A stretch of DNA of 64,000 nucleotides from contig NC_043000.1 of assembly GCF_006345805.1 (NCBI RefSeq), positions 30,566,001 through 30,630,000 of the forward strand, read 5' to 3'. The notes below the pieces were generated by a model, which worked only from the letters and a program-made list of their open reading frames with translations, was not told where the DNA came from and ran no database searches. The stretch comes from Octopus sinensis (Eukaryota). This document shows positions 6,823 to 56,339 of this stretch, in pieces. Both the position numbers and the translations under genes were made by a program. Position 1 is the stretch's first letter; every line of letters begins with the position of its first letter.

Positions 6823-8455
6823 ATATATACAGAGAGAGAGAGAAAGAGAAATGTATAGAGAGATTGACTTATACATGTGTGTGCGTGTATATATATATAT
6901 ACGTCTATGTAATTTATAGGATATTATATTAATCGTATTGCGTTATACATGCATAAAAGATAAGATACCTCTGTTAAAAGATGTTAAAATATTTAAATTA
7001 TAAAACATATTTGACAGAAAATTGTACGTCATATGATGGGCAGGAAAACTTTATTGCATTCATGTAATAAAAAATAATAATTTGTATTCTATTCAAAGCA
7101 ATTACTTTCATTTAAGTTTTAAGAAGGTGATTATATGGACCTCTTACATTGTGTGTACCTAGATTTTTTTTATTTGCTCCCAAATTTAAGATTTTTTAAG
7201 ATAGTTAACAATGCCCCCAATCTTGCAAATTTTTCAAAAATTCAAAAATTATGAAACATGTAGCCTATCTTGTGATTTGTATTGAAATATAGTTCTTCAT
7301 CTTGTTATGTGAAATTATACACAACCTTGTAATTTCAATTGCTAGATAGAATTACCATTTTTGAAAAAAAAAAATGATGATCATAGAGAAAACAAAAGCA
7401 GGAACTGACAAATCATAAAAAATATCAATAAATATTCTTTGTTAAATTGAATATTTTCTTTCGACAACTTGCCAGATTTATATTTTAGCAGACATATACA
7501 ATATCCTCAAGCTTCCAAGTGGATATTAATTCCACAAACGCAAAAAAAAGTTAACTTATGGAAAACGGCTGCAATCAATTTTTTTTGCCGCAATAATTTA
7601 CTGCAGGGAATAAAATCTGGTTGTAAAACATAACCAATAATATATTCGCTATATTTAAAAGAGATGATTGGAAAAAGAACGAATGTAAGGATACAAGCTA
7701 TCTTATTCTCTCCTTCTCTCGTATACCATCACTCATTCATTCACTCTCTCTTTCTCTCTCACTGTATCTATCTCCACGCTATCGCTCTCTTTCCCTTTCC
7801 CTTCCACTATCACACTCTCTTTCACACACAACCCTATCGCTACATCTTCCCACTCTCGCTCTTCCGTTCAATCTCCCTCTGTTTCTCTCTCTCTCTCTCT
7901 CTCTGTTTATCATTAAGTACCTCTATTTTCTCCCTATCTTTGTGACAAAATATCTTTTTATTTTCTCTCCTCTCTACCTTCTCCTACACTCTCCTTCTCT
8001 TCACTCCCTCGGCCTGTCCTTCGCTCTCTCCTTCACCCCTTCTCTTTCTCCTTGTGTTTTTTCACTTCGTATCTCCCTCTCTCTCACTGAGTATTCCTGC
8101 ACATATACATAAAGATGTATTATGACTAAGACAGGAAGAAATTCAGAAACATCAACGACCACAATACTTTACAAAGGGAAGTTACGTCCTTTTAAAGACT
8201 TCATGCGTCTTCTTCGAAAGGCGTATTCAACGGTCATCTCAGGGTTAACAAACTACAACATTTCGCTTTCCTCCAATGTGAGGAATATCTCACCATTTAT
8301 ATATTTATATACCCAGACGTATACAAAGGCAATCTATTTTAATCATAGGGAATCAAAGGCCCTTTCAGCGTTTCCGAGATTTTTAGATAAAAATTTAATA
8401 AATATACGCAGACATATTTATACACATACATACACGCGCGCATACACACACATAT

Positions 8456-8581
<126 letters not shown>

Positions 8582-8584
8582 TGT

Positions 8585-8840
8585 GACAATTAGTTGGTTG
8601 TCATAATAAAATTCAGTTTCTGATGCCGGGGCTGAAGTCTGCTCCGGCATCTCATCTGTTATTAAGACAAACGCTATCTTTTGTCTAAAATAATTGATGA
8701 GATGCCGGAGCAGACTTCAGCCCCGGCATCCGAAACTCTGAGTTTTATTATGACAACCAACTAATTGTCCCATATTATATTTATAGAGAAATTCCTGTAT
8801 TTTACATAATATAGAGTTCTCATTCATTATTTTGCTGTCA
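8585..8840. mobile_element. Penelope-like LTR/retrozyme-type element; 185-bp hairpin (8585-8769) with a hammerhead motif on each strand
   Basis: Near-perfect inverted arms; + arm AATAA TTGATGA GATGCCGG...CCGGCATC C GAAA CTCTGAG TT TTATT; - arm core reads CAGATGA; (TA)n on both sides. Confidence 0.75.
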
Positions 8841-9017
8841 TATATATATATATGTGGGGGGATGTGGGGGTGCGTGTGTGTGTGTGGTCGCATGGTTTAG
8901 TGGTTAATGTGTTGCACTCACGATTGTGAGATCATGGCTTCGATTCCCAGACCGGGCGTTGTGTTGTGTTCTTAAGCAGAGAACTTCATTACACGTTGCT
9001 CTGCTATCAGTTCGTTA

Positions 9018-9063
<46 letters not shown>

Positions 9064-9064
<1 letters not shown>

Positions 9065-9470
9065 TAGGTTGGTAAGAAAGTAATGTCGGTTTCTTAGTGT
9101 GAAATAAAAGTCATTTTATTTTCATACAAAAAATTAACTTTAATCACTTGTATATTTTTCATTTTGTTCGATGATCTTTCTGGCAACTTCAGGATTCCGC
9201 GCTCATAGAAATTTTGGTCCTTATCAGCCAAAACTGAAGCAAGTGCGATTTGATGTCCCCATCATTATTGAAAGTTTGCAAACTTCGAGATAAATGGTAA
9301 TCTGATGGTGCAAGGTAAGAGCTATATGGTGGACGTGACATCACTTCCCAACAAAGATCCAATCATTTTTCACGAGTTAGGAAAAGCATGACTGGTCTCG
9401 CGTTGTCATGGCACAACACGATTCCTTTACGATTTGCCAATTCTGGCAGTTATTTTTTTATTGCTTGAAC
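9064..9470 (-). mobile_element. Mariner transposase 3' remnant with terminal repeat
   Basis: Minus translation PELANRKGIVLCHDNARP...WEVMSRPPYSSYLAPSDYHL (HDNARPH and YSPDLAPSD motifs); terminus TA|TTAGGTTGG. Confidence 0.9.
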
Positions 9471-9659
9471 CCCTTGAAAAATGGATTTTCTACAATAACA
9501 TCAACCGAAAACGATCGTGGTTCAAGGGTCAAAGAAAAACTTCACAGAAATAAGGAACATATTCTCAGCTGTTCAAGTGCTTATTTCATAAATGCGGGGG
9601 AGCTGGTTACTGCTGAATGGAGTTAACTGCTAGAGCATAATGGCTGGCAGCTTTATAAT

Positions 9660-29672: not shown

Positions 29673-30910
29673 TATATATATATATATATATACATACACA
29701 TATATATTCTTTTAGTCTTTTATTTGTTTCAGATATATGACTGCGGCCATGCTGGAGCACAACCTTAACTCGAGTAAATCGCCCCCAAGAATTATTCTTT
29801 GTGGGCCTAGTACTTATTATATGGGTCTCTTTTGCCGAACCACTAAGTTACGGGGACATAAATACACCAGCATCGGTTTTCAGGTGATGTTAGGGGGACA
29901 CACACACAGACACAGACATACACACACATATATACGTGCATTAAGTGGTTACAGTATATTTTAAAAATGTAAAAGAAAATGAAATGTAGGGTAAACACAA
30001 CTTGTATTGAGCCCTCGTTCACCGGATTATGATACACGCACATACACAGGCGCGCATACATGCACATAAGCGCGTGCACTCTTGTCTTGTCACCAATCCA
30101 AGTCTTCCTCTGTCACATTGACTCTAACGATACTCACTCCCGCTACATATCTCTGTAAGTCTTTACATGTATGTCGTTACAATATAAGGATATGTATTTG
30201 ATTCTCATAAAATGTTACAAGTAAATGAGACTAGACGTGTACATTTGCATTCAAATATATATATGTATGTATTGATAAACACACTTATCGATATATCTAT
30301 CTATCTATGTATCTGTCTATCTATCTGTCTGTCTGTCCGTCTATGTTTCTAACACATCTATCTATATATCTTTCTGTCTACATAAAATTGTTCTGTGAGA
30401 GTGTCTGGTGTTTTGGCCCACCATGAAATGGTTTTAAGTGTCTCCTTTTCATTATGTTAAAGCGCTCAGTTTTATGTGAAATCATCTATCACTGTCGAAG
30501 AGGAAACTCTGGTGGTTGTTGATAAATTCAAATACATTAGTAGTACATTCTCCAGTTATGCTACACACGCAGCTGTATTGCTTGCACTAATGTATGTTTG
30601 CTAAACCACATGTACTGTCTGTGAAAGCTGTTAAATATTACCTAGCAAGACAAGGCCACACACATTGAAGTCCTCTCTTGAGCTGATCAACGAAGAGTTT
30701 ACACATTGCTGAAGCGATCGCAGGTGTCCTTCTTTGAATATTTGACAGACGACTACACAAAAGACTACTTACAGTGAACAGATAGAAAACAAGCGCGCAC
30801 AAGTTTGACAGAAAACGCGTTTCACAGATACTCTCAAAACCGTCCCTGAATCGCTTTCAGATCAACCCCTGATTCCTGGGAAATGGAACACAAGATCGCC
30901 CTGCCTAGAA

Positions 30911-31417
30911 ATGAAAGGTTTAGTCCACTTTGAACTTTTAAACCCAAACCAAACAATAAGAAAGGAGATCTACTACGAACAGCTTGAACGGCTTAAGTCG
31001 GTGCTAGAAGAAAAGCGACCATCTTTGGTTGCGGGACGAAAGGTATTCTACCATCAGGATAATGCTCGGCCACATACAGTGAGGATGACATTCCAAAGGC
31101 TTGAGCATTTTGAAAGGGAAACGATGCCCCAACAACCATATTCGCCGGTCATTGACCCATCTGATTATCAGTTATTTCGCAGTCTTCAAAATCATTTGGA
31201 CGGAAAAAATATGAATTCTGTAGACGAGTTCAGAACAGTACCGGAAGAGTATTTTTGGTCACAGACAAGGGAATTTTAGAAGAGGCATTGCAAGTCTACT
31301 AGAAAGATGGAAGAACATTGTAGAAAATGAAGGAGAGGATATTTTAGATTAAAAAAGAAATTAATTTTGAAAAATAAAAGAAGTATAAAAAACAGCATTA
31401 TTTATGGGATGACCCAA
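30911..31417 (+). mobile_element. Mariner (DD34D) transposase 3' remnant with terminal repeat
   Basis: KGLVHFELL...YHQDNARPH...PYSPVIDPSDYQLFRSLQNHLDGK; ends TTTATGGGATGACCCAA|TA. Confidence 0.95.
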
Positions 31418-35574: not shown

Positions 35575-35625
35575 AATTTACTAAATTTCCCTTGTATATA
35601 TTTAGATTTAAACGTTTAAATTCTA

Positions 35626-36162
35626 CGAGGGTGAGTCAAAAAGTAATGCCATTTTGTTTAGGACAGGTAAAATTACCAACACAGGAACATGTATCATACA
35701 TCAAAATGAAGCTGATCCTCTGTGGATCGCATACGTATTTCTCAACATAGTCACCGTTTCTGTCAATAGCAATGTTCCACCTTCAAATGAGAGCATATAT
35801 CCCTGCTCCGTATGATTCTGTTGACTGTATTTAAGCCACTGCTTCACTACAGTTTCCACTTCCTCGTCACTGGACTATCATCACTTCGGCCCCGTGAAAG
35901 AGGGTTTGAAAAACAAACATATTTCCAGTGACGAGGAGGTGAAAACTGTAGTGAAGAAGTGGCTCAAAGAACAGTCAACATAATTTTACGTTGCAAGGAT
36001 ATATGCTCTCATTCGAAGATATTGACAGAAACGGTGACTATGTTGAGAAGTAGGAATGTGATTCACAGAGGATCAGCTTCATTTTGATGTATGATACGTG
36101 TTCCTGTGTAGGTAATTATACCTGTCCTAAACAAAACGGCATTACTTTTTGCCTCACCCTCG
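35626..36162. mobile_element. Fold-back mariner MITE with about 250-bp inverted arms and TA TSD
   Basis: TA|CGAGGGTGAGTCAAAAAGTAATGCC ... GGCATTACTTTTTGCCTCACCCTCG|TA; right part encodes DYHHFGPVKEGL...SSDEEVKTVVKKWLKEQ...DRNGDYVEK. Confidence 0.93.
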
Positions 36163-36993
36163 TATAATCTACTGAAAATATATACTTCATCAATATAGAA
36201 TCAAATTCTCACTAACAAATACCTTTGGTAACTCATTATACAAAATACAGGAATCGCCCTTTGCAGTATGAAAGTTGGAATGTAGTTTACAATTTTAAAT
36301 TGAACATTTGTACGGATTTTCAATTTTCTCATGACTTGAAAAAATAAAATGTCTAATGAAAGGAGAAAAATTATTAATATTCGCCAGCACTACTGGATAT
36401 GTCATCTCAATTGATAACAATATAAAATGCCGGGAGACGAAGAGGATGTTACGAATATAATTAATAGTTGTAAAATAGCTGTAATTAGATCGACACGTAC
36501 TTTTTTCTTGCACTCTAGTTCAACATATGCGCCAACGATAAAACGTTTTCGTTTTTATCATCAGCAGTTCTCCAACATTAAATTTAGATATTCATAATAA
36601 TGAACATGATGTGTTCAATGAGAATACAAAAACAAAATGGTAAATATTGAGTCAGGAAACACTCAGGTACCAAAAGATTTTAACTAGCGACATTTTCGGA
36701 TTTATTTTATGTTGCCAAATTTTATATGCGTTTATCTTTCACGTGCTCCAGTCATTGGATTGCAGCCTAGCCTTCAAGTAATGTAATCGAACAAATCGAT
36801 TCCAGTAACTTTTGTTAAGAGTCAGGTACGTATTCAACCGGTCCCTTTTGCCGATAGGCTAAGTTGCATGGACGTAAACAAACCAGCACTGGTTTTCAAG
36901 TGTTAAGAAATAGTCGATATAGACGGACACAAATATACACGTATCAAACACACACTCACACACACACAAGAGCGTGCATATATACATATACAT

Positions 36994-39294: not shown

Positions 39295-40520
39295 ATGCGT
39301 GCGCGCGTCTTTTGGTATGTTTGTCGCCCATCACTGCTTGACAACCGGGTTCGGTTTGTTTACGTCCTCGTATCTTAACGGTTCGGTTAAGGAAACTAAA
39401 TAGAATTAGTAGGCAGGCTTAAAGGATAAGTACTAGGCTCTATTTTTCCCACTAAACTCTTCAAGTCACTGCTCCGCCATGGCCGCAGAGCAATGACAGA
39501 AACAAATAAAAGGTAAACGATACAATACACAGCATGCAGTGGGATCCAACATGAAGTCACGAGATTCCGAAGTAAACATTTTGATCTCGCAGTCCAAAGA
39601 AAGATGTAAGCTGATACGTGTAATATCTGCACAGTGGTGTATTTTGTAAGAGTTATAAACTAGCATTTTCAGGAAGCAACTGTTATTTAAAGGGAAATCT
39701 TAATATTTCGTTCTTTTTAAGGAATTACTCCAAGCTAACACTATCCACCTACCGTCCACAATTATACGTAATATAGATGGTGGTGAGAGTCATAAACAAG
39801 TACACATCCTTTATCAGTTTGCTCTCATATTTTTTTCGGTAGTTTCTGTAGACAGGAAATAAACAGAATTATGATTTCTTACATCTGGCTGTAACAATCG
39901 TCTACATTTACAAGCTATGTTTTCAAGGAATGTACAAGTCGGCATCAGCAGAGCCTTCAGCTGAGTGTGTCGCAAGAAACCATATTTGTTTTCCTAATCA
40001 ACGGCCTCTACTTTACTATTATCTGTGGGACTTGAAATTTCCTGTCAACCCATCTCATTCCAGCAAACACCAACACCCTTACTAACAACTACAATGTTCT
40101 TCAGGATGATTTGAAGTCTTCTTCATTCTTGATTCTGCGTATTAACGACGTTGTTCATAACTCTTACAAAATACACCACTGCGCAGATGTTACACGTATT
40201 CAGCTTCTATTTTTCTTTGGACTGCATGATCAAAATATTTACTTCGGAATCTCGTGACTTCATGTTCGATCCCACTGTGTGATGTTTACTGTAGATTTTA
40301 CCTTTTATTTGCTTCGATCATTGCTCTGTGGCCATGGCGGAGCAGTCCCTTAAAGAGTTTAGTGGAAAAAGTACAACCTAGTACTTATCCTTTAAACCTG
40401 CTACTAATCCTATTAGTTTCCTTAACCGAACCTTTAAGATACAAGGACGCAAACAAACTGAACCTTGTTGTGAAGCGGTGATGGGCGACAAACATACAAA
40501 AATACACACACGTGCACGCA
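39295..40520. repeat. Inverted duplication, about 360-bp arms (39295-39660, 40152-40520) and about 490-bp spacer
   Basis: e.g. CAGTGGTGTATTTTGTAAGAGTTAT vs ATAACTCTTACAAAATACACCACTG; CATGAAGTCACGAGATTCCGAAGTAAA vs TTTACTTCGGAATCTCGTGACTTCATG. Confidence 0.92.
39860..40110 (-). mobile_element. Possible C-terminal remnant of a Cys-finger DNA transposase (Academ-like)
   Basis: VGVCWNEMG*QEISSPTD...PTCTFLENIACKCR/VTARCK; weak resemblance only. Confidence 0.25.
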
Positions 40521-48259: not shown

Positions 48260-49000
48260 TTAGAAATATTGTGACTTGGATTGTCTGCAGTGTCTTTGAT
48301 CTGGTTTATCACGGTAAAGTGTCCAGCAATAGTTAGCCAGCGTACTGTCATTCCAGATGCCTTGGCACAGTTTCTCCATAGCACTAATGTCCTGGTGGAA
48401 TCTTTCACCATATTCATCAGACACTACTCTGAGGTTATCGGCGAAGAAATCCAGATGGAAGTCCAAGACGTGAACTTTCAGTGACATGCGGGAACCCATT
48501 GCAGAGTAACATTTCAGAAGATCCTTGATGCAATCCTCGTAGTCCACTGCCTTCTTGTTGCCCAAGAAATTCTCAAAGATCCATTGACAGTATTCCCGAC
48601 AGGCAGTTCCAGTTTATCAAGGGTTGTCTTGAAACTGGCATCTTTGAGTACTTTTCTAATTTGGGCTCCGACAAAGATACTCTCTTTCAAATTTGCCTGT
48701 GTGATGTTGGGAAACTTTTCTACAATATACTCAAACCCTCTGTTATTTCTCTTCCCTAGTGTCATTACAAGCTGTTTCATCAGTCCAAGCTTTATGTGCA
48801 AAGGAGGAAATAGGACATTACATGAGGTGTATTCTTGATTCTCGACAGTCCTGGCTGGTATGATGATCTCGGCTGCCAGTTTGAATCCAAATAATGTCTC
48901 TCAGTTGCCCGTCTATCCCATAGACACAAGAAACAACAGTATTTTGTGAAACCTGACTGCATTCACATTAACATTCCATTGACTTTTCGAGCAGCACGCT
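48260..49000 (-). mobile_element. Frameshifted DNA transposase, probably Chapaev3-like
   Basis: QSGFTKYCCFLCLWDRRA, LHIKLGLMKQLV, IFVGAQIRKV, MSLKVHVLDFHLDFF, VSDEYGERFHQDI, ANYCW; the motif series is clear, the superfamily name is from recall. Confidence 0.8.
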
Positions 49001-55887: not shown

Positions 55888-56339
55888 CGTAGCAGAACGT
55901 TTAATCACCATATTTTTATTCCTGGATCAGAAGATCATAACGTTGTAACTTGTACTCATTACGTTTCGATGTATTTGCACTTTTTTAATGAATGTAAACA
56001 CCAAAATCATCTATGAAACTAGATATTGGCGTCGCACCTAGTCGCTTTTTAACAGGCATTCTTACTGTGATTTTAAATAAATTTATCCAAATTCCCTTAT
56101 TCCAACTTCTGATAACAACTGAGAGACTAAGAGAATTTGGATATGTTTGTTTAAAATCTTAGTAAGATTGCTTGTTAGGGAGCGACAATATGCCACTCCT
56201 GTATCTATTTTGATAGAAACATTTGATGCTTGCGCTCATCAAAAAAGTGCAAATACATCGAAACGTAACGAATACAAACTACAATGTTATGACGTAATGA
56301 TTTAGAAATAAAACTATAGTCAATAAACATTCTGTTACG
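55888..56339. repeat. About 450-bp imperfect palindrome (fold-back/MITE-like)
   Basis: TTACGTTTCGATGTATTTGCACTTTTTT vs AAAAAAGTGCAAATACATCGAAACGTAA; ATCCAAATTC vs GAATTTGGAT near centre 56115. Confidence 0.85.

Follow-up and report, generated by a model that had tools for sequence, protein, structure and literature searches.

The 185-bp palindrome at positions 8585–8769 of the window, a 64,000-nt stretch of the Octopus sinensis genome, is, on the evidence of its sequence, part of a 5′-truncated, head-to-head insertion of a Penelope-like element (PLE) bearing the marks of the Hydra clade, the clade being assigned from motifs. This copy is a mutated leftover, in which two ribozyme-bearing ends of a common Penelope-type element stand back to back. 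Comparison with its relatives elsewhere in the genome makes a joint account probable, in which this mutated, Hydra-marked insertion was likely primed from both ends of a (TA)n target, at two fixed sites on one RNA, with the resulting cDNAs being joined.

The first-pass annotation had described a 185-bp palindrome with a hammerhead on each strand, and folding bears the palindrome out: 8585–8769 forms a single hairpin of −139.4 kcal/mol (z = −26.7), matched by 0/200 shuffles, although its two arms are ~92% identical and hence imperfect. The fold stands, whereas the extent does not, as the element spans ~8576–8843 and is asymmetric: shared sequence runs to ~8843 on the plus side, where (TA)n resumes, and stops near 8576 on the other. 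From left to right, the left (TA)n target tract (8550–8579) merges with the end of a short, untailed pLTR arm (8576–8677, minus strand), whose 5′ end lies ~20 nt before the core and whose 3′ end is end site 1. One extra base at 8678, a G on the minus strand before the short arm’s 5′ end, marks the head-to-head junction, and is followed by a long, tailed pLTR arm (8679–8843, plus strand), starting ~14 nt before the core and ending at end site 2, and by the right (TA)n tract (8840–8853). The tail, of 60–70 nt, is present on the plus side of the element only; placed by copy comparison between end sites 1 and 2 (8784–8843), it lies outside the palindrome as first delimited. A small AC-rich stem-loop is predicted just upstream of end site 1 (8752–8769, plus strand, in a fold of 8678–8770). 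In the majority sequence of the family, each end site is preceded by a similar short motif, TTGTC and then ATATT (8765–8783 and 8835–8843), and a 9-base complementarity links the stretch preceding site 2 with that preceding the site-1 stem-loop; this is not obvious in the sister family described below. No host gene around the palindrome is evident from the window’s ORF list, in which an intron would not show.

Read outward, both arms show the type I hammerhead motif, and the details first reported, namely cores of TTGATGA (plus) and CAGATGA (minus), with an 8-bp stem II and GAAAC in each arm, are correct. On the plus strand, the motif scan and fold place the hammerhead at 8689–8749, comprising stem I (8689–8693), a core with C3 changed to U (8694–8700), stem II (8701–8708/8723–8730), GAAA (8732–8735), a palindromic stem III with a 1-nt loop (ACTC-T-GAGT, 8735–8743), U at the cleavage position (8744) and stem I′ (8745–8749). 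Its minus-strand counterpart (8605–8663, from the motif scan and arm comparison) keeps stem II as in the plus arm and GAAAC at 8620–8616, and is damaged: the core (8658–8652) carries U4>A, stem III has lost 2 nt and acquired a G>A change, and a C has become A before GAAA. When the window was scanned for cores within one mismatch of CTGANGA, an 8-bp stem II was found in these two matches only, the others listed having 4–6 bp. Rfam gave no hammerhead among the matches listed (150 of 174); its MIR166 match at the palindrome, below the gathering score, is a generic hairpin.

The core changes C3>U and U4>A would be expected to impair hammerhead cleavage. Folded alone, each arm forms stem II with a probability of at least 0.95, which becomes 0.000 on both strands in the whole element; the competition between hairpin and ribozyme that had been anticipated thus finds support, the full hairpin being predicted to abolish the ribozyme stems. 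Each strand also has one hammerhead only, with its own antisense copy coming first, so that a transcript of either strand would hold no tandem dimer in cis. Because of the core changes and the blocking antisense arms, the two hammerheads here are predicted to lack activity and to be mere passengers. Contigs placed on 7900–9500 came largely from other copies, and are uninformative on the locus, editing or cleavage.

Microsatellites dominated the repeat search of the whole window, which also holds a ~555-bp element at 35617–36171 with 152-nt inverted ends (92% complementary) and TA at both ends, which we take to be a Tc1/mariner-type MITE from its appearance. Two long inverted repeats, at 39413–40401 (202-nt arms, 585-nt spacer) and 55888–56339 (215-nt arms, 22-nt spacer), gave no hammerhead in a motif scan. 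By eye, frames at 30809–31279 (plus) and 48260–48900 (minus) resemble remnants of two DNA transposases, one mariner-like.

The palindrome has many relatives. A search of the 2.72-Gb genome with the 185-nt query returned 1347 candidates, of which 40 were scored; the exact core pattern has 113 genome matches and a pattern downstream of the ribozyme 169, against 0 for reversed control patterns. Two sets of arms were assembled, neither selected on the core: 54 from loci picked by overall similarity and 65 from loci picked downstream of the core. The expected family consensus, CTGATGA, was recovered in 44/54 and 48/65 arms, respectively. As arms lie ~6% from the majority sequence, the family is old and decaying. 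Targets are (TA)n on both sides, leaving TSDs unreadable, and flanks of like kind occur in the sister family (27 young pairs listed).

Palindromic and solo copies were counted from the first 100 of the 169 downstream-pattern places, which gave 82 insertions after removal of one duplicate locus and two tandem duplicates and with six of the places, at four sites, left aside. A scripted search found an inverted partner in 50/82, to which inspection added two more (L226 and L288), in a count that would miss partners farther than the flanks of roughly 1–1.5 kb. Both cores are whole in 20/43 pairs with both ends in view, so a hammerhead on each strand, while present as claimed, is a routine by-product of both truncated arms passing the core rather than a special feature. 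About 3 kb from one family copy (L077) is a host frame, long and made of a single exon (minus strand, 785 aa), that by eye resembles a protocadherin.

The proposal of a Penelope-like pLTR in inverted arrangement gains its footing from longer copies, which reach upstream through a 1.1-kb microsatellite-rich UTR into remnants of RT and GIY-YIG coding sequence. In the clearest order, at L051, a tailed inverted arm is followed by an RT-thumb remnant, a GIY-YIG remnant, the 3′ UTR, the hammerhead and (TA)n; Pfam scores the GIY-YIG of this fragment at E = 0.0089, below the cutoff. Coding remnants likewise lie upstream of the same hammerhead at L049, L050, L080 and L145. A search with the L051 remnant gave 16896 candidates, the 150 scored being mostly from a young sister family at 73–81% identity, which has 2104 exact arm matches in the genome. 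Its unit is ~2.6 kb. At L129, a 717-aa open frame is flanked by two pLTRs, and partial tandems give direct pLTRs at L129, L130, L132 and L183; none were seen around an ORF in the palindrome family’s own copies. The sister ORF has RWK, DKT, CxCX5C, CxxC and CxH motifs, the last three of which are also found in palindrome-family copies L051 and L050, and the remnants are up to 87% identical to it, less in frameshifted pieces. No full-length copy of the palindrome family was found in the search, and its N-terminal motifs (RWK, DKT) come from the sister only.

Pfam assigned no family to the full sister ORF. A protein search with it gave 835 relatives, at 42–52% identity and with uninformative names among the 120 matches listed; a search with the 156-aa endonuclease fragment, confined to longer lengths, gave nothing, and tblastn with the sister ORF had no match in the 64-kb window. 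The features of an endonuclease-bearing PLE are nevertheless present, namely RT with a C-terminal GIY-YIG (as a whole ORF in the sister only), pLTRs, a hammerhead in the pLTR, an inverted 5′-truncated copy and a one-sided tail. Those given for the Hydra clade, RWK, DKT, CxCX5C, CxxC and CxH with (TA)n targeting (PMC8557442), are found as well, RWK and DKT in the sister. It is because the longer copies hold RT and GIY-YIG remnants and the sister ORF has these motifs that the element is assigned to this clade.

Between the two families, stem I shows two compensatory changes, and in the sister the stretch matching the 8784–8843 tail continues into the 5′ UTR. The sister core reads CCGAAGA in 49/50 arms not selected on the core, and in one variant pairing is possible between the core and the 3′ half of stem II; the sister family may have spread with a weakened ribozyme (L129–L218). 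Upstream of the core, the two families share a conserved block (about −55 to −17) that closes with a T-run and CATA; it is a candidate core promoter or splice acceptor, and the remainder of the UTR is not conserved between them. Near a sister-family remnant, at L148 (1106–1952), a distinct hammerhead-like motif whose core is CTGATGA occurs three times, with both orientations represented.

The evidence on how the insertions form comes from their arms, which end at one of two sites, lying relative to the core at about +85–95 and +160. Of the pairs with both 3′ ends in view, 71/75 in the palindrome family (156 loci) and 41/43 in the sister (99 loci) combine a tailed with an untailed arm, or 112/118 with the families pooled. 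Simple tailed/tailed pairs number 0, the single such case lying in a complex tandem, and untailed/untailed pairs 5, in 2 of which the tail was displaced by a later insertion. Among the 32 copies with no partner found, 17 are tailed and 15 untailed. Partner arms also share source variants: those of the sister family diverge by 0.4%, against 1.5% for shuffled partners (41 pairs), and in the palindrome family a C/T variant agrees between arms in 46/50 pairs. Arm-to-arm divergence in the latter is 10.1%, against 11.1% when shuffled, which reveals little later homogenisation.

Arm lengths in 86 pairs, read by hand with one value corrected for an internal deletion, show the untailed arm longer by >30 nt in 22, the tailed arm in 15, and the two within 30 nt in 49. 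The 5′ ends of partners fall within 10 nt in 39/86 pairs, beyond all 20000 permutations in each family, and still do so in 4/24 long-long pairs (p = 0.0007). A sharp pile-up is seen just before the core, where 31/82 seed arms start at −25 to −1, compared with 3 at −50 to −26, 9 at 0 to 24 and 9 at 25 to 50, these being BLAST ends with several bases uncertain in a T-run. No excess of 5′ ends is evident at the predicted cleavage site (+51), where the sample is thin, and no shared spliced first exon was seen by eye upstream of short arms. Neither measure of a cap-derived extra G, namely GG (in 7/68 short versus 2/71 long arms, p = 0.09) and a G before ATAG (4/20 versus 3/53, p = 0.08), reached significance.

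From these patterns we infer priming on both strands, a single template, coordination of the two start sites, run-off ~20 nt before the core and joining by short homology. In such a scheme, both cut ends of the (TA)n target would prime reverse transcription on one RNA, one at each fixed site; the cDNAs would stop by fall-off or at the RNA’s 5′ end ~20 nt before the core, and two short cDNAs would be linked through a small number of shared or added bases. An Anolis PLE protein, predicted to be a dimer, does cut and extend both strands in vitro, starting at two internal RNA sites bounding the tail, and its hammerhead mutants still insert; against coordination, the start site did not differ between strands (PMC11167929). 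Transcription beginning in the upstream pLTR, where PLE promoters lie (PMC2377424, PMC8557442), may account for the pile-up near −20; alternatives are a splice acceptor and pausing within the U-rich run. A more specific version, put forward tentatively, is that one dimeric RT-endonuclease would engage both start sites of one RNA simultaneously, one per target end, run-off from the upstream pLTR then giving the 185-bp hairpin as a ‘double strong-stop’ product. If this were true, every inverted pair would be tailed plus untailed, and short palindromes would map the promoter, with transcription starting ~20 nt before the hammerhead core.

Next in standing, though unlikely, is self-priming, in which one antisense RNA or cDNA would fold back to make its own mirror arm, copying being stopped or cut at site 1, as has been proposed for rotifer PLEs (PMC3846280). 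The variants shared by partner arms and the coinciding 5′ ends, both within 10 nt and within 30 nt, are what fold-back would give too, and several junctions fall within short palindromes. Yet fold-back predicts nested arms, and the 22 pairs with a longer untailed arm depart from this unless later deletions made them; central deletions could turn equal arms into unequal ones. At L051, ~1.8 kb of untailed arm faces 160 nt of tailed arm, and for some untailed arms no partner was found. Two-site priming on one RNA is favoured over self-priming because of the tailed/untailed pairing, the shared variants, the fact that either arm may be the longer and the 5′ pile-up.

That the palindrome is itself a non-autonomous unit copied whole, such as a hairpin SINE or retrozyme, with a double ribozyme or dsRNA hairpin serving a role of its own, is very improbable. 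Many copies are nearly equal in size, and the start of 31/82 seed arms shortly before the core would suit it; against this, palindrome centres vary from copy to copy, these variable junctions largely refuting the idea, lengths grade continuously up to kilobases, cores are decaying (with none of the 11 core bases changed in 30/54 and 36/65 arms of the two sets) and the predicted effect of the hairpin is to prevent both folds. An animal non-LTR retrozyme, defined by head-to-tail tandem repeats each with a hammerhead (bioRxiv 10.64898/2026.07.22.740005), is rejected, as the copies here are dispersed, truncated and inverted. The TIR MITE of a DNA transposon, named at the outset as a finding that would overturn the reading, can be set aside almost entirely despite the palindromic core and TA-rich flanks, as the true ends are not mutual inverted repeats (the tail being one-sided), length is not fixed, the linked coding remnants are RT and GIY-YIG, and 5′ truncation follows a retroelement’s pattern.

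Two-site priming bears on the origin of PLE inverted repeats tailed on one side, a question described as open (PMC8557442). The palindrome copy itself is ordinary, and it is the family statistics that matter, modestly. Published work already covers the clade, the inverted layout, the one-sided tail and hammerheads on opposite strands; no paper among those listed in a search of the non-subscription literature states the tailed/untailed pairing rule. The near-obligate pairing, shared template and sharp 5′ pile-up yield predictions for the published in vitro PLE assay, and a sister family of 2104 arms with a CCGAAGA core fits the view that hammerhead cleavage is unnecessary for spread. Penelope families are catalogued in an octopus repeat annotation, in passages that do not mention hammerheads (PMC13282606).

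Among the families listed by Craig et al. 2021 (PMC8557442), the nearest is Hydra-1_Obim, itself from an octopus, which matches 28 of the first 44 sister-ORF residues by eye. As in the Hydra clade described there, a C-terminal GIY-YIG, RWK, DKT, CxCX5C, CxxC and CxH (in the sister ORF) go with a (TA)n target, and the hammerhead lies near the 3′ end, with a palindromic stem III, a 1-nt loop and, as often there, U at the cleavage site; that source also gives Penelope-13_HM as an inverted truncated copy with a hammerhead on both strands. The palindrome family is nonetheless separate from Hydra-1_Obim, because the hammerhead sequence differs, Hydra-1_Obim moreover being listed without a pLTR. Its 8-bp stem II, 14-nt inner loop and 1.1-kb microsatellite-rich 3′ UTR are unlike the Hydra families listed, and its tail of ~70 nt compares with 30–40 bp given for PLEs (PMC8557442).

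PLE hammerheads described by Cervera and de la Pena are likewise type I, with a long helix II (7–8 bp), a small palindromic helix III and expected dimers, and opposite-strand pairs ~100–700 bp apart were reported there in 2014 (PMC4209133). The motifs here differ in being predicted, in having cores ~36 bp apart and, as folded, in an unpaired base at the 3′ end of stem II. In Adineta vaga, Pen2a_Av-type insertions share the head-to-head inverted pLTR, the tail at one end and the junction palindromes; antisense self-priming was favoured there and TSDs of 8–10 bp were read (PMC3846280), whereas in the octopus families (TA)n masks the TSDs and the tally of arms speaks for priming having occurred twice. 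The Anolis element Poseidon PAc is of another clade, and the sections considered in its report make no connection between its two sites and inverted insertions (Frangieh et al. 2024, PMC11167929). In vitro it nevertheless resembles the octopus elements in its two internal start sites bounding the tail, its AT-rich target and an AC-rich stem-loop near the start, and it extends both strands with the hammerhead dispensable.
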